DNA of 64,000 bases from Takakia lepidozioides (taxonomy: Eukaryota > Plantae > Bryophyta): positions 18,166,001-18,230,000 of the forward strand of contig CM060732.1 in NCBI GenBank assembly GCA_030704615.1. The letters run 5' to 3'. Position 1 is the first letter of the stretch. Each line of letters starts with the position of its first letter. The notes below the pieces were generated by a model. It ran no database searches. It was not told where the DNA came from and saw only the letters and a program-made list of their open reading frames with translations. Shown here one piece after another: positions 16,756 through 60,329 of this stretch. Position numbers and translations under genes: made by a program.

Positions 16756-16815
16756 TATTAACTTTTTCTACCCCCTCTTTCCCTCTGTGTTTTTTTTTTT
16801 TTTTGTGAGCAACAC

Positions 16816-16851
<36 letters not shown>

Positions 16852-16854
16852 CAA

Positions 16855-18440: not shown

Positions 18441-18627
18441 GAAGGTAAGTCTTACTCAACGTCAACCCCTGACAGAGGCAGGTTCTGTCCCTTTTGTTTT
18501 CGCTCAAACAGGGCGCGAGGTCAATAGCCACAAGGCTACGGCAAACAACGTCTTACGAGTACAATCTTTTAACTTTTTCTGCACCCTCTCTCCTTTGTGG
18601 TTTGTTTACTTTTGAACAGCAAAAAAA

Positions 18628-33939: not shown

Positions 33940-34179
33940 GAGGAGGAAAATGAATTTTCTCTTTGCCACCACAGTGAGAAGCTGGCCATTGGTTTTGGGC
34001 TGATCAGCATGACCCCTAGGACGCCTCTCCGTCTCATCAAGAATCTTCGAGTGTGTGGTGACTGCCACACCTCCACCAAATTCATCTCAAAGTTTGTTGG
34101 CCGAGTAACTGTTGTATGGGATGCTAACCGCTTTCACCACTTTGAAGATGGGATTTGTTCTTGTGGTGATTACTGGTGA
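33940..34179 (+). pseudogene. Isolated C-terminal DYW deaminase fragment of a PPR RNA-editing factor
   Basis: HHSEKLA...[10 protein letters not shown]...[16 protein letters not shown]. No upstream PPR, E domains or PG box. Confidence 0.92.
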
Positions 34180-36199: not shown

Positions 36200-36440
36200 G
36201 ACAGGTAATCGGCGCCCATTTCCAGTGCATGTTCGGACTTAGCCAGTTTTTCGGCGCAAATAGGGAAATTCGGCGCCATTTTTCCAGACACTGTACCAGT
36301 GCATGTTGGGACTTAGCCAGTTTTCGGCCCAAAAAAAAAGAAATCGGCGCCATTTCCAGACACTACGGTACCAGTGCATGTTGGGACTTAGCCAGTTTTC
36401 GGCCCCAAAAAAGAAAATTCGGCGCCATTTTTCCAGAAAT
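36200..36440. repeat. ~75-bp tandem repeat x3 (GGACTTAGCCAGTTTT and AAAT(T)CGGCGCCATTT cores)
   Basis: Direct reading. Shares cores with the array at 40513-41075. Confidence 0.85.
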
Positions 36441-36591
36441 GGCCCCACAACTGCTTCTGTTGGATCTCAGTTTGAATGGAATATTGCCTCATTCCATGAG
36501 TTTTGGGGTGCATTTCATTACACTGCAAAAAAAAGTCTGATACAGCAAAATGCAATTGAAAATATCCATATGGAGGATTCCCTTTGCCCCA

Positions 36592-39500
36592 TCAATGATT
36601 TCTGGAATCCCTAAGGAGGAGTTTGTGCAGCTCGTTCACGCTCAACGTCGGTGCATGAATAAAGTCATCAATAGTCACGTTCATCCTCAACCTCTTCAGG
36701 TAAATGTAATACAGATGCTTGCACGGATAATACTTCGAACCCTTCTTTGCTTCCATCAACGAGAAGTCCGTACAATTGCAAGTCGGCTCCACTCCAATCG
36801 TAATTGTGTATACATCGTCGCGTACAGCCGAGCCGGCCGTTGCCATCGATACACACGCCCAAGGCCGGGTGGGGGTACGTCCACGGAGCTCTGAATAGTG
36901 CAAGCCATCCCAAGAGCATTGGCAATCCGAGTCTCATTCAACTTGTTGGGAGGGTGTGTCGTCTCTTCACTCTTCCGAATCGCATTGTGGGATGTGCAGA
37001 ATTGTCCAATCCGTCTCTACTGGACCGAGCAGTCTGCAATGGCTGGATCTGAGGAACCGGAAATGCGTGGGTCGGGATGTCTGTGCGTTGCACCATTCGA
37101 CATCCTGCTGCAGATAGAGCATCCGCCTCATTCTGAGAGAGGCTTCAACCCGGTGCAACAGGCCAGACGCCGGAGGCTCCGGCATTCCCTGAATCCCGTA
37201 CTTGGGCTTGCAAATACACAGGTCATTATGTCGTGCCTACAGAACCAAAATGTCTGCGTTGTGGCGTGAGCAAATGTGGGAGTAAAAAATCTGCCGCTGA
37301 AACAAGGTGCAGATACAGCACCGTGTGGGTTCCTCCGAATCATCTCACCACATCGTGCTCTCGTATCCACCCGGATGGCGCAGCACTTCCCTCGAAATGC
37401 CGGCAATGTCCTCGCAATTCTCCATTGTGACTCCAACACTCTTGTCTCCACAATGGGAATGTTGTACTGCTTTACTACAATGGCTCGTTATGTTGCCGGG
37501 GCACGCGCCCTGTGCTCAAAGGAGATGACGATCTTGAACGTGCAGGACTTGCGGTGCTCGACGAGACCTCCTCGGGCAACATCACCAGACCACGAGGGAG
37601 CGTGCGAATATTCTGTCAGCTCGCCATGAATCCTCTTCTCGGCCAGGTGCCTCGTCAAGTCTTCGTCTCACTGGACGGGTATGAACATCTCCTTCCAAAT
37701 GTTGGCCTCTTCGCAGCAATGGCGTGTCCCAAAGGCCCTCTCGCAGGCCGCCGCCCACTTCCGAGGATTCTTCGATCTAGAGGCAGTCCGCATCAGCATT
37801 TTTCCTGCCTGTCCGGCCCCAAGCCCCACTGTTTCCCTTTCAAGAACTCGTTGTACCTGCATTGCTGCATAATTGACCTCACAATGTCCTCCGTTGTGGC
37901 AGTGAGGATGTCCACCAGATGCGCCGTAGAGGAGGCACGCCGGGAAGAATGCATTGATTTGGCCATGTTTGTCGTGGGCATGTCGGTGTCGGGTCGACAC
38001 ATTTCCTGCCACACAAGCACATGTTGAGGTTACAAGCAAGTTACAAATATGACCAAGAATATATTCACAACGGACCGAATTCATGCAACTCACCTCCCGC
38101 ATATAGTCGCCGAACTGGAGGAAATGATAATGCCACCATGCTAGCCAACTGACCAATTGCTCCTCGTCTGATTTCCTTACAGCACCTGACGATGTCCACC
38201 AGCCCGTATACATGCAAACTGTGTCTCTGCATCATCCAAGGTGGGAGCGCTTCCACGCAAGGCACATGGAACGGTTCTCCTCTCTGAAATCTGGCGCCAC
38301 GAGCCTGGTTGTGTACTGCGAAAGGCTCTGCAGAAAATGGAACCCACAAGATCTCTCATTGCCTTCCATGGGAACATTGGGGTCTTGCCCGTACACCCTT
38401 CGGATGGCAGCCCAATTTGCTTGTGCGTTGTCCGCCATGAAACCACGGAAATTGGGAGGGGCAATCCGCCTTGGCCATCTGTTCGTTTATTCCTGCCAAA
38501 GAAGCATCTCCGATTGTGTGTCCTCTCCTTTCATCTCACAATAGCAATTGTCATTAGCATCCTGCAGTGGGTGTCGTAGACATGTGCACCCATTGTCACC
38601 CACTGGTGATTTGTAATTCGCTTGATATGGTCGAACATGACCCAACTGTTTGACAAGTCCCTGGGCACTCGTCATCCTGTCGACCAGTTCGACGCCGCTG
38701 CTAGGTCCACACGTGGACATTTTGAATACGAAACAATGATCTGCCTCAGTCCCTTGTCCTGGAAACCTACTTCCTTGAATGTAGTCATATCCACATCGTC
38801 GCTTCACCTCCAGAATGGAGTGCATATCCGAGCCACGCCCAATTTTCTGTTTGCATGAGACAATGTGGTTTCGGACATTCGGTGAACATACGTGGGACAC
38901 GACTCCAGTAATGCCTCCATTTCCTTCTCATCGAGAGGAATTCTATCAGAGCCGTCTTCCGACATAATTCTGGCCAATGCCATCTTATGGGCGGCTTGGA
39001 GCTGTATCTGTTTGGGTTTGGCACCCGGTCTCAACTTAACCTCCTCCTTAACGAGCTGCTCTGCCTCATGGGCAGCCTCCCGCGAGTTCCCCCTCGCCAA
39101 TTTGTGACAATGGGAACCAACATGTATGCAAGCTTGGGTGAGGTCAGGGAAACGGTGCAACACATAGAACTGCTTGGCATTACAAACAGACATGCAGTGT
39201 GGTGGTGGTTCTTTGCAATGCGCACACTTAAATGTGGAGTTCGGAACCTTCTCCTGAGCTCGAAATGGTTGATGAGCTGTGCCTGTCCAATCGGGTCTCG
39301 TTCCTGTGACCTCTGGATTTAAAGTGGAAGCAAGTTGGGGAGAAACACCGCAACGCGCCGCACAAACAACGTAGCGCACCCGCACACCATCGAGCATCTT
39401 CATGCTGTGGTTTTGGTAACGCACCAAGGATGACCGTCATGTTTTCTATCCATATCTGTCAACATTCCGGACGCCCTCGAGTAGTCCGCCCGAGGAGGGA

Positions 39501-40116
39501 ACTCAAAGAAGATATTACCGTCGACGTCGGCGGGAAGGCATGTAACCGATTTAATTGCAAACTTGTTGTAGTCCAGCCCGGCCAGCTCCGACCGGTGTCC
39601 CTCCAGGTGAAGCCCTTGTAGAATTTCAAGAATAGATCGAACTGCGGTGCTCGTGCTGGGAATATGACTCCCTCCTCCACTAACGTCCATTGAGGACTTG
39701 CCTGATCTCCAGGACGACCTCGGAACTTCCATGACCTCATCTGAGTCGGACAGGTTGTGAACAACCCGGTTCTCGCTCGTCTTCATGGATGGGTTCGGCT
39801 CTGGATTTACTTCGTTGCGGACTTCTCTCTTTGAGGTAGCCACTCTCTGATTCGCGGATTGTTTCGTGGAAGACGCCAGGATAGAAGGTACATTTGGCGT
39901 GCAAATGAAGTCCCCAACAGCCCTGTATATGACGCTGTCCGATGGTGGAACTCGCCATTCCCTGCCATCGCCGAAATCATCGTGGAGCACAACAATACTC
40001 TCGACAACAAGGCCGTTTGAGTCCTTCCTTTCCTCCTCCAAAAAAACCGACCCCGGTTTCAGGTGGTATCGAACGCACAATATTTCTCCATCACCCGGCA
40101 GATGTCCCCTCTGCAC
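36592..40116 (-). pseudogene. Mutator-like (MULE) DDE transposase with C-terminal SWIM zinc finger, frameshifted
   Basis: CFVFKMST, VMFDH, GFMADNAQANWAAIRRVYG, CGFH (CxxH), WLAWWH, TNMAKSMH (expected catalytic E appears as K). SWIM TCNCTDF...CKHLYYIY in ORF 36592-36903. Confidence 0.75.
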
Positions 40117-40512
40117 GGAAATGAAGCTCTATGCTCGTGAGGAGGGCAGTACACTGTAGCGCTCGGGTTTTCCGCCATGGGAGATGTGCACACAGACTGC
40201 CAGGATGGCGGTGCGGGAAGCTCCCTGATAGAAGGGGGCAGCGATGGGAAGGAATGCGGTGCCGATTTGTCCGAGCGACGAAGCCTGATCCAAATCCAGG
40301 GAGCCAACTATCTCAAAAATCCACAGTCAGAGTGTTAATGAACCTTGTCTCCGGAATGCGGCCCCTGGGTCTTTGCGCAATAACTGCCAACGGTATGCAG
40401 TCAGAAAGTGGGGGGCCGTCCGGATGATGTCGGCTGAAGGGGAGAAGCCGGCACCGTGCCGTCACATTACTACCCCCGAATGGAAATTCGGCACCTAATA
40501 TCCAACATCCAA

Positions 40513-41075
40513 AGTCCCTAGACTGGCTGGCCCGGAACTGGAAATTCGGCGCCATTTTCCAGTTCTAGGCCCTATCCGTTCAGGGACTTAGCCATTTTCG
40601 GGCTAAGTCCCTAGACTGGCTGGCCCTGAACTGGAATTCGGCGCCATTTTCCAGTTCCAGGCCCTATTGCCGTTCAGGGACTTAGCCATTTTCGGGCTAA
40701 GTCCCTAGGGTGGCTGGCCCTGAAGTGGAAATTCGGCGCCATTTTCCAGTTCTAGGCCCTATTGCCGTTCAGGGACGTAGCCATTTTAGGTGGCTGGCCC
40801 TGAACTGGAAATTCGCCTTTTTCCAGTTCTAGGCCCTATTGCCGTTCAGGGACTTAGCCATTTTCGGGCTAAGTCCCTAGGTGGCTGGCCCTGAACTGGA
40901 AATTCGGCGCCATTTTTCCAGTTCTAGGCCCTATTGCGGTTCTGGGACTTAGCCATCTTCGGGCCAAACCGGGAAAAATGGCGCCGAATTTCCAGTTCAG
41001 GGCTCCCAAGATGGCTAAGTCCCTAGGGTGGCAGTCACCGAAAACCGAAATTCGGTGCCATTTTTCCATTTCTAG
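40513..41075. repeat. ~94-bp tandem array (~5 units plus an inverted partial unit) with internal hairpins
   Basis: Units begin GTCCCTAG at ~40513, 40607, 40701 and 40873. Stems GGACTTAGCC/GGCTAAGTCC and AACTGGAAA/TTTCCAGTT. Confidence 0.9.
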
Positions 41076-41156
41076 GCCCACTCACATCCGCCCCACCTGG
41101 GAAAATGGTGCTGAATATGCATTTCAGGGACCTCATTGTGTTTTTCATGAATGCAG

Positions 41157-42601
41157 GTACTGCAAGTTCTCCCTTTTGGAGAAATGTCATCTGTCTTTCG
41201 AGCCACCATTCTTCCTGGCATGGAGGAACCCTGGGGCTGACTCCATGTACACTGACGATATTGTGAAGGAGTGGCATCTGGAACATTTGCGTGATTGCCC
41301 TTGGTATGTGGACCTTCCGCCCGGCTCGCTCGACCCATCCGAGTTTCAATTGAAGCTGGATGCTGAATTCCGACGAAACCGGGCTCCGCTGCCTCCGTTG
41401 GGTGCAAAAGAGGCAAAAGCGCTTGCGAACTCCAGGAAAGCGGCAGAGCTTGCTCAGGCAGGAATTCAGGAGAAATTGCATGAGAAGAGTAAAGGCCAAA
41501 GGAAAAGGACAGGAAAACATGAGTGCAGTAACACCCAAAAGAAGAAACCATCGGGGCATCGGAGGAGGCGCAGGAGGGGACCCAAGAGAGTGACTCGGGC
41601 GACGACTTTGTTCAAGGTCCTGCGACTGCTGTTGCTCCTACCCAATCACCGGTCGTTCGGGTTCCCAAGTCAGTTCGGTGGGACTGGCTCTGCCAAGAAG
41701 TTGGCATTGAGGACGAGCCTACACGGCGGTATTTGGCAGTGACGTTTACGCACAGCCAAAGCTAGAACCTCCAACCATCATCCAATGCGTCAATGAGAGC
41801 TTCCTTGACGCTCTCGCTGCCAGGTGAAGAAGGTGGCACACAACAAGTCTCTGGCGGAGCAGAAGGGGAAAGCCAAGAAGAGGGCTGGCGGTACAGAGCC
41901 TAAAGACACCCCTGGTTTTGAAGCCATGATGGAATTCTTCACGGCTGCACGGATTGCAAGAGCACTCGGGGGGGGGGGGGAGAGAGAGCTTGCGACATGA
42001 TTCTCATCGACATTCCAGATGGGGACTGCTGGAGGGCCTGGATGGTGTGCCCACCTGGAACAGGTTTACCGAGGACTACTGGAAAGCCGGGTTTGGGCTG
42101 GCGGGGATGCTTCTGGATGACGGTGGATGTGTGGTTGGGAAGACCACAGAGAATGCGGTGGCAAGGTGGACACCGAAAAGTGTCACCCCGGTCCTCCTCA
42201 GAAAATGGTTCTGCATCAGTACACAGGGGTTGCGAACAGAGGGCCAAAGTGTAAGTTATCAATCTATTGCATTCACTTCATTGTGGTGTATGTTAAGTAG
42301 ACCCTGGAGTTGATCCCTTCTTTGTTGGATGTGCAGACATTGGTGTTTGAGGCATATTGCTTTGTGAAGAGAGGGTCTACGTTCAAATTCCGCAACGACG
42401 GTCGTCTTGTTGATGTCGCTGTGGACCCTGTAACCTACGATGTCATCTACAACTATGTGCCCCACTCCAGTATGCCGAAGGACACAAAGACAGGCAAACC
42501 GTGGCGGTACAGCCGGACCCGGAGCCCTGCTTTCATCCAAACCCTCATGGAGACGTGCTCGGATGTCCAAGGGCGGATTCTGGACCTCACATGCGGCACG
42601 G
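41157..42601 (+). pseudogene. Beta-class N4C/N6A DNA methyltransferase-like gene 2, divergent from the MULE transposase and interrupted by the Gypsy element
   Basis: DMILIDIPDG...VPTWNRFTEDYWKAGFGLAGMLLDDGGCVV; intron ~42251-42336; RSPAFIQTLMETCSDVQGRILDLTCGTG then a GTAAG donor at 42602. Clearly homologous to gene 1. Confidence 0.72.
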
Positions 42602-42656
42602 GTAAGCCTTCACGTGCTCAGTTTGTACCCTGGCCCGATTGCAATTGCATGCCGCA

Positions 42657-43343
42657 TGTCGTGCGCATACATATCGCTACACAACTACATCGCTGTCCAA
42701 AACCACACAACACATGTGCACACCACACACTAGTATACCACTAGTCCACCACTAGTCCAGCCACTAGTCCACCACTAGGCTACAACTAGTCAGTCACTAG
42801 GCTGCCACTATGCTGCCCACTATGGCAGTCACTAGTCCACACAATGATAAAGAAGAAGAATACAAGCACGAGCTCACAAAGCTGAAGCATAAACTCATGC
42901 ATATATAACCTCATCACTCAAATACAAGTCAAGCCAAGTGCACCCCACGCCATGGGGAATCCACACTACGGCGCCATAGCTAGGCGCGGTGAGGCTCAAC
43001 TCGAGAAAGATGAGCCTCCCGCGCTTGCCGTGAAGATAACCACTCCAGGGCCTAAATCTGCCTTGACCCCTGGATTGACACTTGGGCCAATCCCAAATGT
43101 CAATATGTAAAAGCTAGCTATTTCCTTCCTAGCTAGTTTCACACTAGTGGTAAAATAACTTGACAGCTGTCGTGCGCATACATATCGCTACACACTACAT
43201 ATCGCTGTCCAAAACCACACAACACATGTGCACACCACACACTAGTATACCACTAGTCCACCACTAGTCCAACCACTAGGCTACACTAGTCAGTCACTAG
43301 GCTGCCACTATGCTGCCCACTATGGCAGTCACTAGTCCACACA
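42657..43343 (-). repeat. 3' LTR region of the Gypsy element: two ~180-bp TG...CA direct repeats (42657-42843, 43168-43343) separated by 324 bp
   Basis: Both start TGTCGTGCGCATAC and end CTAGTCCACACA. A PPT-like tract (minus strand AGGGGGGCGAT) abuts 43343. Confidence 0.75.
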
Positions 43344-43603
43344 ATCGCCCCCCTAGCTGGTGCTTAGGTCCCTCTAAGTCCAGGTAGCCACAAGATGTGA
43401 TAGTGACCATAGCCTCACTAAGTCCTCCACCACTATCCCTACTACACTCAAACTCGATAGATCAAGAGGCCGGGTGCAAGAGTTGCCCCATCGTTAGTCG
43501 CCGTCTTGCAACCTGTGAACTTGAGCTTGGGATCTCATGTATTGACTCCTATGAGCTTGGCCTCCCATGTCTTGTTAGCTGCCTCCAGTCATGTCCACTG
43601 CCA

Positions 43604-43747
43604 CTATCCCAAGCAGTGTGGACACAACCAATCTCCGTCAGGAACCTTCTCAAGAGGTGGTGTCAAGCATCCCATATGCCAACCCCTTGAGCATCGATCA
43701 CACAGCATGGTGGCTGCCCCTTTGGCAGACCCACAGAGCATGCACCT
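43604..43747 (-). CDS. PHD finger at the integrase C-terminus
   Basis: CMLC...MLCDRCSRGWHMGCLTPPLEKVPDGDWLCPHC, a canonical C4HC3 with Trp before the last CxxC. Confidence 0.93.
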   Translation of the reverse strand, partial: RCMLCGSAKGAATMLCDRCSRGWHMGCLTPPLEKVPDGDWLCPHCLG

Positions 43748-45000
43748 CAAACCTGCAGGTACCACTGCCAAGTTTGGGTCAACTCTGCCATCGACATTGG
43801 GAAGGTGACATGGCGCACAATTACGCACATGGTCCTTCCAAGTCATGCCATCCCGACCCTCCAAGATCAGGACCCCTGAGGGCAACACCTCTCGAACCCT
43901 CAGAATAACACGCCCTGCAGTAACATCCAGAGTCGTAGGAGCAGTCTGCTGCAAATAAACATAGTCACCAGGGCTAAACCTCCGAACCCCAGGACGATAT
44001 CCTCCACCACGTATAGTGGCATACCTCAACGTATCACGGTGCTGTGTGCAATGGCAAGGTTCTCAAAAGCCATGGGCATGACTTTCTTGAACAACTCTGC
44101 ACGCTGATCACATGCACGTACCCACACGTCCGGATCGTCAAGGTTAAGGACTTGAGCAGTGTCCCTACGAATGGCTGCAGGCAAATCCGGCTCTCGGCCA
44201 AAGAGAAGGAAATATGGTGAGAAGGAGGCAAGTGATGCTTGTTTGCTGAACCTGTAGCCCATGGCTAACCAAGGAACCTGAAGATCCCAATCTCCTAGGT
44301 GTCCCTTCTGCAAGCCATACTTGCGCAAACCCCTCTTCACCGTCTGAACAACTCTCTCTGCTAAGCCATCGGCCTCAGGATGATCCCGAGAAGTGGTGCG
44401 GTGGTCTATCAAGGCTTTATCACACAAAGCCTGAAACTCCCCCAAGAACTCTCTCTCTCCCTTGGTCCGTGAGTACCTCAGCTGGAGCACCAAATCGGCT
44501 AAGCACACGATCCAAGAATGCATACGCAGCCCCCTCACTAGCCTTGTCAGGCAATGGAACCAACTCAATCCACTTGGAGAAGTGCTCCACCATCACCAAC
44601 ACATATCTGTGGTGGCGCATAGTCAGTGGCAACGGTCCTGCGAAGTCAAGACTCCACCTGTAGCCCAATCCCATGATTGGTAAAGGATGCAACTGTGGTG
44701 TAGGGGCGTTGAATGAAGCACGCACCCTGTCACACACCATGCACCTAGCCACGAACTGTTGCACCTCTGTATGCATACCACGCCACCAATACTGCCCCTG
44801 CAGTAAACTGTGAGTGCGTCGCACTCCAAAATGCCCCAACTCCTCATGGGCATGCCGCACTAACCGTGCACGCTGTGTGGGGTGAGGCACAATCCTCACC
44901 CGACCATCCTCCCACACTCGAAGTAGGTGTATCCCCTCCCACTTGAACCTCTTGGCTCGTTGCAGGATCCGATCCCTCTCCCTGGCAGTCACAATGGCTG
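43748..45000 (-). CDS. Integrase (HHCC zinc-binding + DDE core), frameshifted
   Basis: HEELGHFG...CMVC; WSLDFAGP; LTDQG; ADGLAERVVQTVK. Confidence 0.93.
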
Positions 45001-45224
45001 CCGTGTCTCCCGTGCGGAGGTAGTCCAACACAGCCGAATCCTCATGTATATCTCTGGCACCACCTAGCTCATCACTAGCCTCAGGGTCCTCAGACACTCC
45101 GTCTACAGTCATCCCTGTTGTAGGTCCAATCTGACCTCCCGATGCCAAGATACACAAAAATGCAGATGCGTGCCATCCCGGCACCATCTCCTCGTCCGTC
45201 TCACCATGCCACCGAGCTCCAGTG

Positions 45225-45542
45225 TCATCCTGCTGGCTCCTGCTTGTCTGACTCCATCAACCACTTGAGTGGCTGGTGATCCGTGACAAGGGTGAAAAGA
45301 TTGCCGTATAGATAGCACCTGAAGTGTGCCACGGCCCACACTGCAGCTAAGCACTCTCCCTCATATGAGCTGTACTTAGCCTCTGCAGCGTTGTTCGAGC
45401 GGCTAGCGTAAGCCACTACGAACTCTCTTCCCTCATCATCCACCTGTGTGAGCACCGCTCCAAGCCCCAGCATGCTCCAATCCGTATGCAGCTGAAAGGG
45501 ACGCCCCCTGATAGGTCGTCTCAAGATAGGCGCCGAGGTCAA
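45225..45542 (-). CDS. RNase H (C-terminal part apparently deleted)
   Basis: FQLHTDWS..GLGAVL; VVAYASR; YSSYEGECLA; TDHQPLKWL. The usual RW..L.EY...NAD.LSR tail is missing. Confidence 0.9.
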   Translation of the reverse strand: MTSAPILRRPIRGRPFQLHTDWSMLGLGAVLTQVDDEGREFVVAYASRSNNAAEAKYSSYEGECLAAVWAVAHFRCYLYGNLFTLVTDHQPLKWLMESDKQEPAG

Positions 45543-45576
45543 CCTCGCCTTGAGCTCTTGAAAAGCTCGTTCCTGC

Positions 45577-46463
45577 TCATCTTCCCACTGCCACTGGGTC
45601 CACCTTGGTCAGCTTGGTTAGAGCCTTTGCAATGGTACTAAATCCCTTGACAAACCGTCTATAATAGTTTGCCAACCCCATGAAAGCTCGAACTCGGCTC
45701 ACATCCGTGGGGCGTGGAATTTGTGCAATGGCCTCTACCTTAGTCTGCTGTACCCCCAATCCTCCAGGATATATCATGTGACCCAGATACTCAATCTGGT
45801 TGTGGAAAAACTTGCACTTCCCCGGATGCAACTTCAATCCGTGCGCTCTCAAGCGCTCCAATACCACCTGAAGGTGTCTCTCATGCTCCTCCATCGTAAC
45901 ACTAAAGATGATGATGTCATCTATGTAGCACCGAGCAAAGTCCACCCCTGCTAGAATCCTATCCATGACTCTCTGAAACTCTGCAGGAGCATTCTTAAGC
46001 CCAAATGGTAAGAACCGCCACTGATATAGGCAATCCTTGCCGTGCTCATTGATCCCCCAATGCCGTCTTCTGCTTGTCCGCCTCCTTGATTGGCAACTGG
46101 TGATATCCGGATCGTAAATCCAAAGTGCTAAAGGCCTTAGCATGCCCGATGGCATCAAAGATCTCCTCTGGTGTTGGCATGGCATACTTATCGGACTTGG
46201 TCTGACGATTTACAGGCCGGTAATCACCGCACATACGTCTCTCCGTCCAATTGCCATAGACATCCTTCTTGGCTGGCATCACTGTGGCTGAAGCATACTC
46301 TCCACCAGAGAGCTCCACCAAACCTGCCTCCCAGAGATCTTGAGTCCTCATCTGAATCAAACCTCTCCATGTCACTGTATCTATAGGGTCTCCGAAAGAT
46401 TGGCGTGTCAGTGGCCAACTCAATACGGATCTCTTGACCCTTCAGTGCTCCCAAGTCCTTCAA
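45577..46463 (-). CDS. Reverse transcriptase (Ty3/Gypsy), frameshifted
   Basis: RMCGDYRPVN, FSTLDLRSGYHQ, LPFGLKNAPAEFQR, YIDDIIIFS, YLGH. Confidence 0.95.
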
Positions 46464-46929
46464 ACTGAAGGCAAAGCAATTCCTGTAAGCCCTCAGGAAC
46501 CGCCGTATACGTCGTCTCTCTCCTCCGGTGACAATGGGTCCAATGTCAGGCTCCCAATTGTCCTCCGTAACTGCAACCTTAAGTCCAGTGGGCTTAGAGG
46601 TAGAGGACGCGTCCAGTGGTTGCTATGTTGCAACCTCTTGAGCAGTACTCCCTGCCTGCTCAGTCAATGACAAGGCCTCATCCTGCCCCATCATCTCATC
46701 CTTGAGGACCTCCTCAACCCGAGAAGAATCCCCAACCTCATCCATCACAGCCGCCTTGGCTGCCAACTCCCTCTGAACCTCGAGCACCTCCCACGTGTGC
46801 CATGGATGCATGCACCCCGTGGTCCTCACATGCTCGCCCCCACTCACTGCCTGTACCGTCTCGGTAGGCAGAGAGACCATTGAGGGAAGTGTACTCCGCA
46901 CTCTGCGTTGCTCAGCCAGAGCCAAGCTG

Positions 46930-47880
46930 ATAATCCAGGTCAAGCAATTGAGATCCATTGCTTGCCCCAACACTTGACGACGTGATGCCTCAGAAAGAGA
47001 CGACACCGCCGTGGTACCAGTGGTAAAACCCATTGCCCGCTCACGCTCGTCAGCATTAGGCTCCACTAACTGCTGCAACTGAGCATCCCACAGGAGGCCA
47101 GGTCCACTATCCCGGAAAGCATGCGATCCTGGGAAGCTGAGCAGTGTAGGTAATGCTGCTCGTGGTTGACCCACCTTGTGACCACTGCCAAAGGCGAACG
47201 GTCATCGTGTCTCACACGCTGAGACTGCCTCCCTGTGTCCAGAATGTTATCCACTGTGAGATGTGCTGGCCGCTGCACCCCATCAAATGCGCTTGAGCAG
47301 TGCGGGTGGCATCAAGTTAGTCCACCATAGCCGTGGACGATGAGCCCGTGACCCCACTGTAGCTGCATCTAGCAACACTGCTGACCCAAGCCACGACCGG
47401 ACTTGATGCACACTGGCCATCACCCTGGCCCGAGAATCGCCCATCAGTGGCACATTCTCCAAGATGTATGCTGGAGATAGCTTGATGAAGCTGCAAGTGG
47501 CGCAAAACCCGCACCATCTCCCAAAACAGACCCGACCTCGAGTCTCGCAATCCATTGCCATGCCCGGCTGATGAATGCCCTTGGCAGGGCCAACCTGCCA
47601 CTACCAGATCAATGGAGCCAACCCGCTCCAAATCCTGCGCCCCCCAGCAACGAAATGTCTGCTGGCAAGGCCTGCTGATATCCACGAATTGCAGACACCG
47701 ACAACAACTCAGGTACCGCTGCACCAACTGAGCAACATGGCGAAGTGAAACGCGTCGTGCAGTCTCATCCCTCTCCACATACAGGTAACGCCGAACTCGT
47801 ACACCTGCCTGTAACACAGCAGCCAATCCGGTGCTGATCCCGCCAAACAAGTCCAGAAGACAAATGCCTTCATCCGGATA
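46930..47880 (-). CDS. C5-cytosine DNA methyltransferase (DNMT3-like) domain within pol
   Basis: Motif I LLDLFGGISTG; II YVERD; IV IDLVVAGWPCQG (~47581); VI YILENV (~47451); VIII AHRPRLWWTN; IX EPNADERERAMGF; X RRQVLGQAMD. All in canonical order across 1-bp frameshifts. Confidence 0.92.
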
Positions 47881-48084
47881 CTGCCACACATAGGTGTGGT
47901 GTCCAATGGAGACAATTGAGGTGGTCCTGGTGCAATCCCCACACTCTCCTCCTCTCCTGACGGTACAAAAGCCTCCACCCAGGCTTGTTGCACCCGTCGA
48001 TCAGCATCCCGCTGCAAATCCTTGCTCGTGCCCCACAATGGAGTCTGAGCAACCATGGTAGGCAACTCCGCCATACCATACATG

Positions 48085-48641
48085 TCATCCTGCTCTCCCG
48101 GGAGGTGGTACATCCTCTGAATGAGCATTGCCCTCAAGCAACTCTCTAGGCCAACTCACTGCCGCTGTGAATGCTGCTAGTGTCGGCATCTTGCCTCGCT
48201 GGGCAACCGCAACTCCTCCTATGAACGTCACAGGGAGCTGCACACGCCGGCCCTCCCCTGACTGCCATGCAGGCCTATAGGAAGCTGACTCCTCCCAAAA
48301 ATCCAGGGTGAAGCCCATGGGGTACAACACTGCCCCACCAACCAGGACATCGTATGAGACCGCGTCTGTCACAATGGCCTTGGCTCGCATCACTGAGCCA
48401 TCTGTAGGGTGATCCGGCCGTAGTCTGATAGCCAACTCACGCCGTGTCATGCCCCGAGCCTGCTCCGATCCTCCCAGAGACGTCTGTATCTGGAAAGGAC
48501 AAGGCTCCATATCCGCCTCCGTGAGGCCCAAGCCTGCAATAGCAGCTCTGCCCCAGCATCAATGGCTGAGCTCCCGAGTCCAACAAGACCCGCAGTGGCC
48601 GGTACCTCTTGCCTGCCGGTCCACTCAAACAGAAAATGCAT
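48085..48641 (-). CDS. Aspartic protease
   Basis: RVLLDSGAQPLM ... YDVLVGGAVL. Confidence 0.85.
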
Positions 48642-48875
48642 CCTGGTTGTCTAACATGACAACTCCAGGTGTCACCATGGCGCGCTCAATGGCTGGCCTA
48701 GCTGGCAGCTCCATCAACCTGGCAGCTGCAGCTTGCCATGGCGCCGCCGTGGCAGTCTTGACCCTCAAATCCGAGGATCCCTCCGGCACTACACCTCCCA
48801 CTATCTCCGCAGAAGATGAAGTAACCTCCCCACTCTCACAGAGTGTAGCTGCCAGCCTGAACACCTCAGCTGGTC

Positions 48876-50785
48876 TTACCCCGGCGTCGCAATCATGGTA
48901 GCCGAGAACAATGGAGCCTGGCACACAGATGTGGCCGCTCCTAGCAGCACACTAGCTGCCGTAGCCTTGGCAACACTAGGTAGTGGTGCTACCCGTGTAG
49001 CTCTCCCCAATGGCATAGTAACCTCCGCCTCGGTAACAGTCGGGCGAGAACTAGGTGCCATGGATGGCGTCGACACTGTCTCCGCCAATGTGAATGACTG
49101 AGGAAGCCTAGCCTGACGGCTTGCCTCCCCACGCTGTGGATCCAACTCCACCTCTGCACCTCGTGGCTCAGGAACTCGTGCTGCTCCTCGAGTCACGGCT
49201 GCAGCAGACTCCACCTGCACTAGTGGTAGTGCTGCTCCACACATGAATCCCATGCCTCCCATATCTCCTCCCTCAGGAGCAGGAGGTGGACCATCCGGCC
49301 TTAGAGCCGGTACCACCTGAGCTGTAGCCATGGCAGCGAGCCTCTGCTCTAGCTGCTGAAGCCGGTTGGCCATGCCTTGGTCAACACCCTGACCTCCGCG
49401 TCCTTGGCCATGTTGAGCTTGCCCTTGGCCTCGTGGCTGGCCACCTCGTCCTCTCTGGGCTGCTCCACCTCGCCCCCGGCCACCATTGTTCCCTTGGAAC
49501 TGGCCTGGGCGCAACTCAGGATGCAAACCATAACACTGGGCCTCTCCATGCCCGTGCTTGCCACAATGCCCACACTGCAACTGTGCAGGCTGTGCATGTG
49601 CCGGCCCTTTGCCTCCCTCTGGGCAATCCTTCTTGACATGGGGTCCTCCACATGTCCAGCACACCACATCCGCCCGTTGTTGGCCAGCAAATGAAGGGAG
49701 AGACCCCTGCATCTGAGGTCCTCTCTGCCCTTCCCTGAGCTTCACCTGAGCCCCTTGTTGCCTTGAGCACGTTGAGGTAGTGGTTGGCTAGGAGCACCAC
49801 TACCCCGTGGTGTCTCCTTAGCAAATCCCACCATGACCACTTCGTTCCTCCACCATGTTGAGCTCTATCCGCTCTGCCAGCAAAAACACATTTGCTAAGG
49901 TGGGTTGGGCCGCTTGTAGGAGAGTTGCATCCCGCACCCTTCTCCTCAGCTCCTTGTCCAATATCCCATACCAGAATTGGACTGCCTGAGCTTCCGTAAC
50001 CCCTTGGGTTACATTTATCAAGCGCCTCATGCGAGTGAAAGCCTCCCTCAAGCTCTCGGTCGGCTTCCGTTGGAACTCTTGCAAGCTCCGCAACTTCTCT
50101 GTCCTCACCCCTTGGTAGTTCCCTCTCAACTCTTCGAAGAACTCCACAACAGGGTTGAAGGCAGGCACGGGTGCTAGTGCTGGTGCGGTAGTGGCTTGGG
50201 TGGACGTCGTAGCTACTGTACCACCAGTCCCACTGCTGCTTGCTGAAGCTGCCGGTGCAGCGGCAGGTGTAGCCACTGCCCTCGTGGCTCTAGTGCCCCT
50301 AGTGATGGAGACATAGTCGGGTGACCAGTACATCCTCCACTCCTCGATCTCAACCTCATGCCCCCCCCGCCTGAACTCATGGTAATCATCCATAGGCGGC
50401 CCCTCAAGGTGCTGAAACAGCCCTTCCATGCCATGAAAGGCGTAAATAGTTGTGGATTGCGCATTTGCTGCAAATCACACCAACTATCAAACTCTTGGAT
50501 AAAATCATCCAACTCGATGGTGCCCACCGCCCCAGAGTACCTTCGTGGCCCCTTGGTAGCTCCATACATCTCCTCCATTGTGTCCCCAAACAATGGCAAA
50601 GAAACAACTTGCACCGCCGGTATGAGTCCTCCTGATTCACAATCCGAATCAGAACCTTCCGTAGAAGACACAGGAGGTGAAGGTGGCCTAAACCGCACAC
50701 CTCGTCTCGTGTACCCACTAGTATCGCTAGTGCTCGAACCGGCACTGTCCCCAGCAACTAGTGGCACCTCCGTGTTGACACTCAA
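48876..50785 (-). CDS. Gag with two CCHC-type zinc knuckles, frameshifted
   Basis: LRSLQEFQRKPTESLREAFTRM (major-homology-like); CWTCGGPHVKKDC; CGHCGKHGHGEAQC. Confidence 0.85.
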
Positions 50786-51518
50786 CCGGTCATGAACATG
50801 TCCCTAACCCCCTCTCCACAAGGTAACCGGGTAGAGAACCTGTTGCGGCTTATGGTTTGGAATACTAAGTTCCTAACATAGCCTACACCTGTACCTGCAT
50901 CCACCGCAAGCACTCCTATGGTTGGCTGGTCATCACCTCCAACCTCACCACAGGAGAAACAATGATGGTCTGGCTGGTCATCACCCCAGCCTCACCATCG
51001 ACAGCATGCTCTAGGACTGGCCGGTGATCAAATCCGGACCAATCACCTATAAAAACAAGCGCCCACACAAAACTAGCATGGCGCACAGTCAAGCATGCAG
51101 GTATGGAGGGGATCCAAACACAAGAAATCAGAACGACAACTCCCCCACACCAAAAACAACTCCACGGTGTTGCTCCTGCAAGGACACCCCAGCCCAAACC
51201 CGGACTGACTCTTGCCTCCACCTACGGAAAGGTCTTGGCCTAATGAGAGGTGGAAACTACGAGGAAGAGAAGCTAAAGCAATGCCTAACCCAGCATGCCC
51301 TCATCCCAACACTCTTCCTCTCCTCTCTTCCCTCACTTGCATGACCATGGGAATATCATGAAGATACTCCTCAAACCGCCCTCCACGAGCTTCAAAATTC
51401 GGCCTTCCAACCACATGCCAGTCCTTAGGCAGTCCACCAGTGCCTCCACGAGTCAGCACAGGCCGTCCACAGGTCAACACGGGCCACCACAGACCAGCAC
51501 AGGCCCACACAGCTCACT

Positions 51519-52521
51519 GGTCACAGCCGTCACAATCCCAGGCCAGGGCCCAGCCTGTCATAGCCCTCACAGCCCCACACGCCTGTCACAGCCCCGCACA
51601 CCCCACAGCCCGTCACACAGCTCGCCACATCCCCTCACCCATCAAGCACGGCCCACACAGCCCCTCACAGCCCGTCACAGCCCCAAAGGCCTCAGGCACG
51701 GCTTGTCACAGCCCGTCAAGCCCGTCACAGCCCAAAGGCCATGGGCTCCTGTCACAGGGCCCCACAGCCACTGGGCACAGCCAGTCACACCCCGCACAGC
51801 CCGTCACAGCCCCCACAGGCCACTGGGCATACCTGTCACAGCCCGTCATGGCACAGCCTGTCACAGGCCCCTCACAGCCCCACAGCCCCACAGGCCACTG
51901 GGCACAGCCTGTCACAGCCCCTCACAGCCCCAAAAGCCACGGGCACACCCGTCACATCCCGTCACAGCCCGTCAGCCCCACAGGCCTCAGGCACGGCCTG
52001 TCACAGCCCCTCACAGCCCATCACCCAAACAGCCCCAAAGCCATGGGCACGCCCGTCACAGAGCCCCCACAGGCCTCAGTCACGGCCCTGTCACAGCCCC
52101 AAAGGCCATGGGCACAGCCTGTCACAGCCCCTCACAGCCCGTCACAGCCCCAAATGCCATGGGCACAGCCCGTCACAGCCTCACATGCCACTGGGCACAG
52201 CCTGTCACAGCCCCTCACAGCCCGTCACAGCCCCACAGGCCTCAGGCACGGCCTGACACAGCCCCTCACAGCCCGTCACAGCCCCAAAGGCCTCAGGCAT
52301 GGCCTATCACAGCCCCTCACAGCCCGTCACAGCCTCAAAGGCCTCAGGCACGGCCTGTCACAGCCCCTCACAGCCCATCACAGCCCCAAAGGCCATGGGC
52401 ACAGCCTGTCACAGCCTGTCACAGCCCCTCACAGCCTCAAAGGCCTCAGGCACGGCTTGTCACAGCCCCTCACAGCCCATCATAGCCCCAAAGGCCATGG
52501 GCACAGCCCGTCACAGCCCCA
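51519..52521. repeat. Minisatellite of (G/C)TCACAGCCC 10-mers with a ~50-bp higher-order unit, in the Gypsy 5' leader
   Basis: Repeated CCTGTCACAGCCCCTCACAGCCCGTCACAGCCCCAAAGGCC. Confidence 0.92.
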
Positions 52522-53085
52522 TCCATGGCCGCTCTGGCAGTTTAGCCATTTTTCCAAGGGGTTTAGCCACGCCAAGCTAGGGTTTGTGTCTCTTGGACTC
52601 TAGGCTTCTTTCCACCGAGCTATGGCGGCTGTGAGGAAATCAACAAGGTATTCTTGCTCTATCGGCTCCCACACCACCATAGTAGCCCTAAGCCATGAGG
52701 TGGTTGCCACAAACCAAGCCTTCTTTCTCACTTAGCCTCCCCAAACACGCCACTAAACTCAATGGCAAACAACCAAGCCCTGCTGGTTCCCAGCCCTTGT
52801 GAGCACTCATTCAAGCACTCTCCTTGGCCATAGCATCTGTCTTAGAGCCTATTCCAGCCCCCTACACCTGCTGCTTCAAGAGTTGCGCTCCCTTCAAGCT
52901 TGAAGTTGAAACCCCAACTCACATAGGCCCTACAAGTGCTTTTCTTTCACTCCAAGTGGAAACCAGCCCTAGACCTTCCGTTCTAGCTCTCTAAAGCTTG
53001 AAAACAAGAGCTTCACCAGAGACAATGGTGTGCCCAAGTTGGTTGTTCTGATGCGGAAACTAAGCCAATAGGCTCGTCCATCAAG

Positions 53086-54003
53086 TTGCCAATGTTAGAT
53101 GATTCATACATCGTGGTAGCTATCCGCGAGGAGCTCATCTCCACGATTTGCTTTGTTTGCGACGGCGAAGGTCATGTGCAATCTGACTGTCCCAAAATCA
53201 ACAGGCAAAACATCTCCGACGCTGCCAAGCACCCCTTTCCACAAACAGAAGTAGTTGGCTCCTCATACAAGACTGCTGCTCAGGCCACTCACGCTCCAGT
53301 CACCATGAAATCAGACGTGGAGGTCCCTCATCAGGGCCAGACTTCTAAAATAAGGAAGAGAAACGGAGAGAAGTCCGGGTCGTGGATACACCCAAACCGC
53401 CCATATGATCTACATCATGTCAGAGTGAAGGACGCTTGGGCATCTTTTCCTTTCTCTGAGGAGGAGCTGCAATTTTTGGATAGCACAAGTCTTGCAATTG
53501 CTTTCCTAGAACTGCACACTTTCACCATAAATCCTCTCACTGGATGGGCCCCCGGATCAGCATATGCGCGAGATAGGGCAGCTATTTGTGTAACTCCTCT
53601 GGTTTACACCCTTTCTGACGATTACACAAATTATTGCTTGCCAGAGGACGGGGAGGGTTTCCGCTTTGCATGGGTTTCTAAGCCCCTGGCCAAGGATTTG
53701 GGTGTCGGAAGTGTGAAGGATATCACTCTCTTCCTCACCAGCCAGATCCTCAGGGAGTTCTTCCCCCATATATCTCTATCTCTATCTCACATTCATGACA
53801 TAGGCATCATGGTAGAGAACAATGTTGCCCTTGTCAATTTGGCAGTTATACATGTGCTCCCAATCTTCCATGTTATCGACTTGGGACAGGCCTCAAGCAA
53901 GCCTATCAATGGGGTATGGGTGGACAAATTTGGCTTGTCTTGTAGGGTCAACAACCCTAATGCCTGGGCACGCAGTTCCCTAATCATGGAAGAAGGTATT
54001 TGA
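53086..54003 (+). CDS. 305-aa ORF with an N-terminal CCHC zinc knuckle, unknown function (possibly retroelement-derived chimera)
   Basis: CFVCDGEGHVQSDC. The rest is not recognised. Confidence 0.35.
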   Translation: MPMLDDSYIVVAIREELISTICFVCDGEGHVQSDCPKINRQNISDAAKHPFPQTEVVGSSYKTAAQATHAPVTMKSDVEVPHQGQTSKIRKRNGEKSGSWIHPNRPYDLHHVRVKDAWASFPFSEEELQFLDSTSLAIAFLELHTFTINPLTGWAPGSAYARDRAAICVTPLVYTLSDDYTNYCLPEDGEGFRFAWVSKPLAKDLGVGSVKDITLFLTSQILREFFPHISLSLSHIHDIGIMVENNVALVNLAVIHVLPIFHVIDLGQASSKPINGVWVDKFGLSCRVNNPNAWARSSLIMEEGI

Positions 54004-54243
54004 ATGGTAGCAGAATTGGCAAGTTTGCCAAAGCTCAAAGGCTTGGCAATGCAGGCTGTGCAGGAAGGCAGGAGTGTGGTTTCATCAACAACAAGGAGTT
54101 GGTGATATACAACAACACAGACATGGTGCTCTCCTCCAATGGGGCACACACAGCCTAGCAGGACAGGTGCATGACGAGTGAGGTTGGCACCTACAGGGTA
54201 GCAAAATTATAGTAAGAAATCATAATAAAATGGAATTCTAGCA

Positions 54244-54890
54244 ATGGCAGAGCCGGAGAACCAGTCGAAGGACAACTCCTTGATTCTGGGATTGACAGAC
54301 CATGTGACACTAGAATGCGTTGCACGGGTGCTTCGCTCTTATTATTTACCGTTGAAAGGTGGTTGTAAGAAATGGCATAATGCGCTAGCAGTGGTTGATG
54401 ATGAAGGCCGCAACGATGTCCTTGAGACTCGCAAACGGGTAGAGATCAAGGAGGAATGGGTTTACATATTGGCTGGGCCTGCACACAATGTACAGCCTCA
54501 TAAGTGCACGGAAGTGGTGGGCGTTTGATTCCGTTAGTACGCGTTGGTGTTGTCTGCTTGACTACCCTGTGGAGTATACCTTTGAAGTTTCTGACAAGGA
54601 GTCGGCAGTTACATGAACTCAACTTTTGGTTTGCGGACAGTACCCTAGAGGCTACATGGTATGGAGGTATGATTTAGAACTCAACGAATAGTCTTCAACG
54701 CCAAGAATGATTCAAGATCGATGTCTTTTTGACTCGGCAAATGTGGGCAAATATGTCTATTTGTACTGGAAGTCTTAGCAATAGATGACTCTCAAAGCAA
54801 TCAAGTGCTACAACTCGCTACTTCAAGCATGGGAACCTCTCCCCGATCTCAACATAGCACGGGAAAGGGAGCTAATGGGAAAACAAGGAT
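54244..54890 (+). pseudogene. F-box/kelch-repeat protein pseudogene
   Basis: SLILGLTDHVTLECVARV...CKKWHNAL...RKRVEIKEEWVYILA, followed by decayed kelch-like segments with stops. Confidence 0.75.
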
Positions 54891-57386
54891 AAATGTGAAC
54901 CGCTGGATTTTGGTTGATCAAGGGTAACGATCCCCACTTCCCAAACGGATGAATGACATGGATGATGAGCAACATTCATGAGGACTTAAAACGGCTCATG
55001 TATCAATGTAAGTTGGTCATGTCCCTGGATGGATGAAAGTTACAGATGGATGAAAATTATGAGGAAGAATAAAAATGGATGAAATCAGCGGATGGAACCA
55101 TGGATGGATGACAATGGATGGAGGAAAAACACGTGGTTCGATCTGGTCCGTTCAGGTGGAGGGCGCAGATCTGAAGGATTAAAAAAAATAAAAAATCTTA
55201 TATTAATGGATACTCTAGGGAAAACTAATTAAAAACTTTAACTAGGTGTCGGTGCTTAAATGCACCAGTGGTGATTTATTATTTTTTTGAGAAAGGGATG
55301 GATGATAGCCGTCAAAACAAATGACGGATGGAGGGTGACGGGCTGCTATAAATCAGCCGGCGAAAGGGAGAACACGGACAATCTAGTTCTTATTTCTCTC
55401 GCTCCCTCTCTTCCTCTTCACTCTCTCCCTCTTCGCTCTCTCCCTCTTTGCTCTCTCCCTCTTCGCTCTCTTTCTTCATTTTAGTGTATGCTAGATGTGG
55501 TAGTGAGAGGGTAGTGAAGAAGAAAGGTGTATAGTGAACTGTTTTGGATCAAATATTACAGCCACAAGTCGTTGGGATCAAGGTGCCGTCTTAGTTGAAG
55601 TGAGTAGTGTGGTACACCGAGACGTGCATGATTGAATTAGAGAAGCTTCTTATTGTCTAGATTTCCTTTGAGTTGTTCGTGTACATACCTCTATATAATC
55701 TGATCGGTCGTCCGTACCCTAGCAACTCATATCAGTTCCGTGAGCAGAATTCATCAAACCTGCACCACCAGCGACATCAATTTGGGACTAGTACTCGGGT
55801 GAGCACCGTGTGGGAAGATCTACCTCGAATAGTTGATTAATTTGTATAAGACTACCCTCTATACCTACCTGGAGTTCTATGGAGACAAACTCGAGTCTGA
55901 ATTTCAGATATCCCAGACCATCCTAGATTTACACCGAGCTAAGGGAAACGACCTTGGAAATCTAGCACTCCGAAGCTACAGCCAAATCGTTTTAAAGAAG
56001 TGTCTCGTCTTGGTTGTTTGTTTTCTTTTTCTTCTTTCTTCCCTGTTCTGTTCTCTTCTATCCTTTCCAGGTAACGAGCCTTGGGTACTTGAATTGAAGG
56101 CGGCTGGTCATCAGAATACCGCCCTATCGATTTTCAACTGGGAAGTCATATCAGGATGTGACTTAGTTTGTCTTCTTGTTGGCCCAACACATCAAGTATT
56201 ATTGATTAAATTACTAACTTCAAGCTGAGACCTTAATTAGTGTTTGGATGATCTAGAAGAGGTGCTTATTGAAGCTCATAGAAGGAAGAATGTTAATGGG
56301 AATTTGATTCAAATTTAAGGAAAACAAGTGGTGAGTGCAGAATTAGGAATTTTTGAACAGGGTCAATTCTTGACTACAAAATAGTTTTGTTATTATTACG
56401 AGCAGCCACGATTTGAGCTAAAACCTTTTTATGGACCTTGATTCACAAACTAAATCCAAAATCTTTTGAGTAAAGCTTAGGTTAGAGCTTCTGCTTTACA
56501 GCAAGTAAATTGAAGAATGTAGTAGGGACTTATGAATTTTTGAAAACAGGGAATTCTAACTGCCAGGCCATGTTAAAGAGTGAGATATGACTATTGTGTT
56601 TAAATAACTAAAAGAAACCCTCTTATAACAACATCTCTAGGTTATATTGATGGTTAGTCTGGTAGTTTACACTTCAGGGGTTGGGGTTCAACTCTTGCCG
56701 GCTGCAACGTATTTGGTTTTGCTCATTTGTTCATAACCTTTGTAATAGCCCTATAAGTACTTAGATAGACAGGTTGGCTTTGAATATAACTTGAGGGATT
56801 TGTCGATTAGAGAGGTTACATTCGAGGTTGGGGTTTCGTATCCCAATAGCCGCCACATTGCTTCCCTATAGTTGGTTTTGATTATCTCCTTTTATTTTGG
56901 TTATATTAATATTGTTTGTTGGTCAGAATGATCTAAATAATTATATATTCTTGACTCACCTAAATTAATGGGTACTAGTAAAAACTAAATAAATCAGTAT
57001 CTCTATTTTTGAGCATATACATAAAGTTACTCAAAAATAAAAGAAATAATAAAGTTGGTTAATTGAAATTATTATTTTTGTTGTTTACTGAATAATTAAT
57101 ATTTACACTAGAATATCTCTCCTCTAAAATAACCATAACCTTTTATATCGAGGGTAATTATACATTCGCATTACTGATTTCTGGACTATTATTTTCGTAA
57201 ATACGTCAATGAGTTAGTACTAACTGTTGGTTACAAATTACAAACACAAACACTTATAACATAGAAAATTTATCAATCCACACTAGCAGCACCCTTGGAG
57301 CTAGGCGGCGCCTTCGGGACCTAACCTGGCTCTGTCTAACACGAACCTTAAATAAGTATACAACTGTTAATGGGGTGCATTAATGG

Positions 57387-60253: not shown

Positions 60254-60329
60254 CTAAAACTAAAAATAAAAATAAATTAATAACTCCATTCCGAGTAGCA
60301 GACACGGTAGGGTAAGTTTGAATGCCAAA

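Follow-up and report, generated by a model that had tools for sequence, protein, structure and literature searches.

A decayed land-plant retrotransposon with a DNMT3-like methyltransferase ahead of a conserved, probably leaky stop codon

The window, the whole 64-kb stretch of DNA that we analyzed, carries what is likely a decayed copy of an abundant land-plant retrotransposon of the Ty3/Gypsy type and the KnitGypsy-Dnmt3 lineage, in which a conserved UAG-CARYYA stop would be read through and a DNMT3-like cytosine methyltransferase (DNMT) would methylate the cDNA of the element. DNMT-bearing Gypsy elements are known from one alga; new here are land-plant members in which the DNMT closes the first open reading frame (ORF1) at a conserved stop. 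The original prediction had placed the methyltransferase inside pol. This part has to be revised, because a conserved in-frame stop parts gag, protease (PR) and DNMT from reverse transcriptase (RT), RNase H (RH), integrase (IN) and a PHD finger, and the DNMT ends ORF1.

Architecture, identity and spread of the element

The element reads, on the minus strand, gag, PR, DNMT, RT, RH, IN and PHD finger (Table 1). The protease of this copy had no Pfam match and was located by tblastn with a Marchantia relative; translation places its LLDSGAQ motif at about 48590-48570 on the minus strand, upstream of the DNMT. The gag-PR-RT-RH-IN order and the DDE integrase are those of Ty3/Gypsy-type elements. A tyrosine-recombinase element of the DIRS/PAT kind was considered and is ruled out by the rve integrase and, in relatives, the 4-bp target duplication. 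A 333-codon frame with a CCHC knuckle (53002-54003, plus strand) adjoins the truncated 5' end of the element.

Table 1. Features of the element in the window, in 5' to 3' order of the element
Feature	Coordinates	Strand	Evidence and remarks
Tandem repeat array with periods of 51 bp and related lengths, probably within the 5' untranslated region; this copy lacks the 5' A repeat	51551..52520	-	contig cover runs on to 53000
gag (capsid region), frame-broken; Cys/His-rich stretch after it, to ~49550	49842..50578	-	61-78% identity to Marchantia P0007 (tblastn); Retrotrans_gag at E 0.0011, short of the curated cut-off
Aspartic protease (LLDSGAQ), frame-broken	48247..48604	-	translation, tblastn; relatives score Asp_protease_2 (Pfam)
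DNMT3-like C5 cytosine methyltransferase domain, motifs I-X unpermuted, catalytic Cys codon 47586-47584, ~5 frame breaks	46935..47868	-	Pfam, translation; DNMT3A is the best PDB match of an open relative
Open 103-codon tail beyond motif X, closing ORF1	46626..46934	-	translation; Marchantia, Calypogeia and other relatives end 66-190 aa past motif X
TAG in frame, then CAA CCA (CARYYA); predicted leaky stop	46617..46625	-	translation; no variant at >=2% in four runs; kept in relatives
Reverse transcriptase, frame-broken	45598..46357	-	Pfam (RVT_1, E 2.3e-25); RT-RH tree
RNase H	45243..45593	-	Pfam (RT_RNaseH_2, E 2e-34); RT-RH tree
DDE integrase: zinc-binding domain, core, C-terminal part; frame-broken	43760..44881	-	Pfam (rve, E 6.5e-10), tblastn
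PHD finger closing pol	43613..43744	-	PF00628 E 3.8e-10; also downstream in 22/80 loci
Polypurine tract adjoining repeat B1	43346..43354	-	same in relatives
Terminal repeat B1, CA end	43168..43345	-	repeat comparison
GC spacer and repeat A2 (TG start; A itself 43165-42846); B1/A2 junction CA-GC-TG	42846..43167	-	named A by position, from full-length relatives
Terminal repeat B2, 92% identity to B1; element end is the CA at 42657	42657..42845	-	repeat comparison

Three-frame translation of the minus strand (46500-48700) gives motif I of the C5 methyltransferases, DLFGG, at about 47853-47839, then VERD and motif IV, GWPCQG, with the catalytic cysteine, ENV (47459-47451), HRPR (~47342-47331), ERERAMGF (~47048-47025) and LGQAMD (~46970-46953). 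The six motifs that had been read from the letters are all present in order with the catalytic cysteine retained, the search with PF00145 proposed beforehand returned a match (E 5.7e-10), and the domain lies between protease and RT on the same strand, as predicted. The motif set is real and well above chance expectation. It is also scattered over three frames; the frame breaks lie near 47710, 47640, 47480, 47290 and 47178. This copy is dead: about five frame breaks in the DNMT leave no way to encode an intact enzyme, and gag, PR, RT and IN are broken as well.

The domain belongs to the DNMT3 family and not to the DRM family, as judged from its unpermuted motifs I to X and from the sequence and modeled fold of L019, an open relative; its activity is predicted. 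Against PDB sequences, the L019 domain scores DNMT3A at an E value of 9.5e-8, HaeIII at 4.5e-5 and DRM2 at 0.085. DNMT3A is also the best fold match of its AlphaFold model, a weak one (pLDDT 54) with low confidence outside the Rossmann core. Tested on this relative, the DNMT3-like identity first proposed was borne out both by sequence and by fold.

The DNMT tree (71 entries, with five phage C5-methyltransferases as the outgroup and host DNMT3 left out) places the window in a 13-entry clade with Marchantia, Calypogeia and Sphagnum (100% support), nested in a 98% clade of 29 entries. Complete members of the DNMT clade end 36 to 190 residues past motif X; the exceptions are two gene models that leave out the stop region. 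The Klebsormidium DNMT is 46% identical to that of L019, and the element DNMTs group apart from the phage enzymes in this tree, whose deep forks are weak and which holds no host DNMT3. A 31-entry RT-RH tree gives the window the same neighbors (support 100/99), so that the DNMT and RT phylogenies proposed at the outset agree. The Klebsormidium protein P0112 (KFL_009030040; profile match E 4.4e-71) has PR-DNMT-RT-RH-IN in one frame. This is the same order, and it supports the assignment to the lineage of de Mendoza et al. 2018, as far as the accessible text of that paper describes it.

The host can be placed from a DYW deaminase domain in the window (33835-34179, plus strand; Pfam E 9.1e-35), which has a canonical DYW end. 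Its named best matches are in Sphagnum, Ginkgo, Cryptomeria and Diphasiastrum, and because these are land plants, the host is a land plant, as had been supposed. The narrower term "bryophyte-like" fits the nearest named relatives of the element, but the DYW search did not narrow the host beyond land plant. No PPR motifs were seen directly upstream of the DYW domain, which is a fragment or a last exon.

The element is not a one-off insertion. When contigs from four public runs, drawn from two samples at most, were aligned to 42000-53000 (over 100,000 contigs in each of two runs), the DNMT reached a depth comparable to that of gag, RT and IN. The summed depth in X1, which is not a copy number, is ~21,000 for the DNMT, 14,000-21,000 for gag and ~33,000 for RT. 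Among the indels listed, many contigs differ from the window at two of the DNMT break sites; these two frame breaks are hence not family-wide. Among the 15 of 508 joints listed, a few skip DNMT-containing parts, at depths of a few hundred, compared with several hundred thousand for the run. A metagenome scan was evaluated for the best 80 of 327 confirmed loci, a set that includes duplicates and represents few families. Within these 80, a protease lies upstream of the DNMT in 67, RT downstream in 56 and both in 49, a PHD finger is reached in 22, and RT is absent in 5 despite more than 900 bases of room. The PR-DNMT-RT order in these 49 loci, the contig cover and tblastn with the Marchantia relative together uphold the prediction of a family-wide domain.

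Named protein relatives come from Marchantia polymorpha, Calypogeia fissa, Sphagnum troendelagicum, S. fallax, Closterium and Klebsormidium nitens. A scan of genome contigs gave one locus, L112, that is filed under a cyanobacterium and is evidently a member of the element family; L112, P0056 and P0108 are eukaryotic element members filed in bacterial metagenome-assembled genomes, probably through contamination. In viral contigs we found only phage C5-methyltransferases (28-51% identity). A profile search of 1.84 billion representatives returned 421 clusters at E <= 1e-30, and 70 of its 142 new rows have the DNMT in another order, after RNase H or before the integrase. A sister group (P0090, P0096, P0102, P0113, P0185 and about 100 more) reads RT-RH-DNMT-IN-PHD, often with 600 to 1000 extra residues after it. 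One of the ten clusters looked up from this group is from Scenedesmus sp., which suggests chlorophyte hosts; the literature searched held no description of the group.

The DNMT domain is under purifying selection in the relatives. Among four open loci, dN/dS of the DNMT was 0.068, 0.115, 0.115, 0.086 and 0.096 in five pairs, and the sixth pair was saturated. These values are comparable to those of the protease and slightly higher than those of RT (0.035-0.043). The window and its sister family differ at 15% of nonsynonymous and at 76-77% of synonymous sites, the latter being saturated. The catalytic motif PCQ or ECQ is kept in 60 of the best 80 of 327 loci, most of which are decayed.

The stop codon between methyltransferase and reverse transcriptase

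The in-frame TAG (46625-46623) follows 103 open codons, and the same frame goes on through CAA CCA into the N-terminal region of RT. Within the family in this host, the contigs of the four runs have no variant at 2% or more at positions 46616-46627; positions 46615 and 46628, which flank the stop region, differ in ~65-70% of the depth in the three deep runs. The sister family (26 loci, 23 distinct copies after 3 duplicates were dropped) has a stop at the homologous place in 23 of 23 copies, with 19 TAG, 4 TAA and no sense codon, and the contexts are TAG CAACCC (18), TAA CAACCC (3), TAG CAACTC (1) and TAA TAACCC (1). L019 and L021 read TAG CAG TTA, and L030 and L112 read TAG CAA TCA. The exact UAG-CARYYA is thus present in the window and these four loci, and the CAACCC of the sister family lacks the final A. 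The residue that follows the glutamine varies (P, L or S), yet the bases remain pyrimidine. As a control, we took the distinct decay stops of these loci: of 383, 6 were followed by CARYY and none by CARYYA. The five lineages share descent and hence are not five independent draws. L019 consists of one open frame of 1369 codons and a second of 1047, parted solely by the TAG; many copies may have been collapsed into its assembly. Purifying selection continues over the 90 codons past the stop (dN/dS 0.10-0.18 in three pairs).

UAG-CARYYA is known as a read-through signal in plant viruses, including tobacco mosaic virus (TMV), from the accessible parts of two papers (PMC4132726, PMC2194720). Like TMV, the element has an in-frame UAG followed by CAR-YYA, and its read-through is a prediction. 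Available accounts of SIRE1 and MuLV also describe a stop between two retroelement ORFs. The element differs from SIRE1, MuLV and TMV, so described, in that its stop follows protease and methyltransferase and not gag or pol. We consider it probable, from this sequence context, that the UAG-CARYYA stop is read through to make RT-RNase H-integrase-PHD.

The DNMT runs into RT without a stop in Klebsormidium, in Closterium and in a second land-plant clade (L041-L080), and Gag-level output of the DNMT is hence not required in the lineage. This second land-plant lineage, which also includes P0092 from Calypogeia, is ~40% identical, has a GWECQG active site and keeps the DNMT continuous with RT; it shares the split repeats, the target duplication and the self-priming signature with the lineage of the window. 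Clade B offered a candidate for a further leaky stop, but its 26 distinct copies had 18 Gln codons, 7 stops and 1 gap, which fits C-to-T decay, and we dismissed it.

Could pol be reached by a route other than read-through? The layout might be as described, with pol made from a transcript of its own, by re-initiation, or by splicing in which the TAG acts as the 3' splice site; in each case Gag and the DNMT would still be produced together. The available description of the yeast element Tca2, in which read-through of the gag-pol stop was below detection in a test system, would fit such a route. TAG suits a YAG acceptor and outnumbers TAA by 19 to 4, and three of five relatives have an ATG at most 14 codons past the stop (3 codons on in the sister family, codons 5 and 14 in L021 and L030). 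However, the 60 bases ahead of the stop have 47-48% A+T and 20-33% T in five lineages, unlike plant introns, which are U-rich. The tail ahead of the stop stays open with a dN/dS of 0.2-0.6. Moreover, the first methionine past the stop comes only at codon 85 in the window and codon 117 in L019 and L112, inside the conserved N-terminal region of RT. We regard these routes to pol as quite improbable.

Split terminal repeats and the surrounding DNA

Past the PHD finger the window has the repeats B1, A and B2, in this order on the minus strand. A 5' A repeat or second A copy was not found anywhere in the 64-kb window, and neither was the missing half of the flanking repeat that the element interrupts. 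Full-length relatives explain the names: six have the arrangement A-coding-B-A-B and four have A-coding-B. Instead of two complete direct long terminal repeats (LTRs), these elements thus have A-coding-B-A-B. The relatives end in TG and CA, and the window copy keeps only the 3' CA end. Among ten relatives with both ends, the target duplication is an exact 4 bp in seven, mismatched in one, absent in one and unresolved in one, and the relatives thereby have the TG..CA ends and a duplication within the 4-6 bp of Ty3/Gypsy-type elements. The split repeats lower the claim to a canonical Gypsy element and not the lineage call, as KnitGypsy-Dnmt3, in the accessible description, has the same exception.

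How could such an arrangement arise? In the relatives, the sequence that directly follows the 5' A is reverse-complementary to part of A, mostly near position 164, and this match is a self-priming signature. In the sister families, the transcription start is predicted near position 164 of A. Self-complementarity of at least 10 bases occurs in 22 of 27 loci and in 1 of 135 control windows. Self-priming has been reported by REXdb for the Tcn1 clade, according to the accessible part of the report (PMC6317226). After such priming, standard reverse transcription would leave B-A at each end; the integrated form therefore implies joined ends and an integrase cut at the internal junction, which reads CA-GC-TG or a decayed version of it in the relatives. 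Foamy virus integrase, which cleaves a palindromic LTR junction, is a precedent in the available text (PMC1180852). The joined-ends model also predicts the opposite permutation, and a B repeat at the 5' end was found in 0 of 27 loci, which counts against it. Self-primed reverse transcription, followed by an integrase cut at the internal CA-GC-TG, may thus produce A-coding-B-A-B, and we put this forward tentatively, as slightly short of an even call. In the literature consulted we found no description of integration via an internal CA-GC-TG of a joined-ends intermediate for retrotransposons with a DDE integrase.

The repeat hit by the insertion of the element contains an open frame (42301-42744, plus strand) that ends in ILDLTCGTG, which we take to resemble the SAM-binding motif of N4/N6 methyltransferases. 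The frame has no Pfam match; in the Atlas it matched by feature, at 0.92, a cluster in which 54% of the members carry PF01555, which is a lead only. A related stretch (…LLTPGQLCF…; YWEYAFSIANDLLDD…) may sit near 31200-31900. Positions 1-26700 hold large tandem or segmental repeats with spacings of ~2.2, 6-7.4 and 14 kb. RT-like frames at 6786-9288 and 21245-23777 contain YIDDI and GIPMGFSCSPL and have no Pfam match; presumably they resemble Penelope-like elements. At 36200-41100, SWIM-finger and transposase-like frames are flanked by 94-bp tandem repeats that occur as inverted copies (36235-36445 and 40512-41079); the region is possibly a Mutator-like element. A fragment at 54229-54528 (plus strand), without a Pfam match, is by its motif presumably from an F-box/kelch-like gene, and a decayed LINE with RVT_1 and zf-RVT matches lies at 57384-60872 (plus strand).

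Proposed role of the methyltransferase and comparison with known elements

Why would a retrotransposon carry a cytosine methyltransferase in ORF1? We hypothesize that Gag-PR-DNMT would be the main product and that occasional read-through of the TAG would yield the full polyprotein, so that the DNMT would be made at the level of the capsid protein, in excess over RT and integrase. It is somewhat likely that the DNMT is packaged with Gag and freed by the element protease. In the particle it would methylate cytosines of the fresh cDNA before insertion. That cDNA is its main substrate, with new insertions arriving methylated already, is plausible but falls a little below an even chance. The PHD finger might guide the integrase to a chromatin state, and whether it steers insertion via histone tails is evenly balanced. 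We would call it unlikely that the full scenario holds in every part, namely, that retrotransposons with a DNMT3 are spread across the green lineage and predate land plants, that one land-plant branch put the DNMT before a virus-type leaky stop, that its particles deliver premethylated cDNA, and that self-priming is combined with integration via the internal CA-GC-TG.

The DNMT could instead act chiefly after insertion or in trans, on the insertion site, sister copies or host chromatin, or serve as a DNA- or RNA-binding protein of the particle. An abundant ORF1 product could also leave the particle. The Klebsormidium domain had no activity in yeast, a result that its authors call inconclusive in the accessible text, which reports also that the related domain of SymbioDIRS-Dnmt3 methylates CG de novo in yeast (PMC5890265), a finding that counts against this alternative. 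CpG and CHG ratios do not set the element apart from the rest of the window, and its CpG observed/expected ratio of 0.53 lies within the 0.36-0.77 of other window DNA, with no stronger depletion. Against a role away from the cDNA, the catalytic motif is kept in 60 of the 80 mostly decayed loci, the whole domain is under purifying selection, and fusion to Gag, or to RT and IN in other clades, puts the DNMT beside the cDNA. We consider such a role unlikely, though a serious candidate. A functionless passenger, either a fragment captured from a host gene or a nested insertion, would fit the broken domain of the window and the stops in most fetched copies. The selection signal (dN/dS near 0.1) already mostly refutes it; in addition, the domain occupies the same position from Klebsormidium to mosses and liverworts, the DNMT and RT trees give the window equal neighbors, and Pfam found no match in the element DNMT to DUF3444, which is present in host plant DNMT3. 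A passenger is therefore very improbable.

Among known systems, KnitGypsy-Dnmt3 of Klebsormidium nitens is the closest in the accessible text of its description (PMC5890265). It shares the intronless, unpermuted Dnmt3-like domain between protease and RT, a Gypsy-type pol, the DIRS-like split repeats (of which the window keeps B-A-B only) and purifying selection. In KnitGypsy-Dnmt3 and P0112, DNMT and RT are in one frame, whereas in the window element the same frame is split by the conserved stop; the host is an alga in the one case and a land plant in the other. The C-terminal PHD finger, the self-priming site, the 4-bp target duplication and CA-GC-TG belong to the lineage of the window and are not described for KnitGypsy-Dnmt3 in that text. 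SymbioDIRS-Dnmt3, from the same source, likewise has a Dnmt3 in a retrotransposon polyprotein and A-coding-B-A-B repeats, but it has a tyrosine recombinase where the lineage of the window has a DDE integrase, TG/CA ends and target duplications. The EpiLTRs of Cymbomonas and Euglena are also LTR elements with a cytosine DNMT and a chromatin reader; in the accessible part of the preprint, their DNMT is sister to DNMT4 and comes with a DAM domain and a chromodomain, and the elements are stated to be distinct from streptophyte Gypsy-DNMT3 (bioRxiv 10.64898/2026.05.21.726589). Troyka (PMC12440569) has a Gypsy-like domain order, as in the window, but was rejected as a match, being animal-only with CG..CG ends, 3-bp target duplications, ordinary rather than split LTRs and no methyltransferase mentioned. 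Later papers mention the lineage, in the parts accessible, only as streptophyte elements (PMC12344493; bioRxiv 10.64898/2026.05.21.726589). We found no description in the literature of a land-plant DNMT-Gypsy element, its stop, its self-priming site or its junction, in a search with thin coverage of subscription papers, Repbase reports and supplements; a supplementary tree elsewhere may already hold bryophyte sequences.

These findings bear on how such elements are recognized and studied. LTR finders that demand two full LTRs would likely miss them. In the genomes of liverworts and peat mosses, genes annotated as "DNA methyltransferase" may be ORF1s of such elements, and the gene models P0025, P0034, P0060 and P0121 appear to skip the stop region. 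The conserved stop leads to the prediction that DNMT is present in excess over RT and integrase. The genetic model Marchantia polymorpha has members of this lineage, so that the benefit of a transposon-borne cytosine methyltransferase can be tested there.
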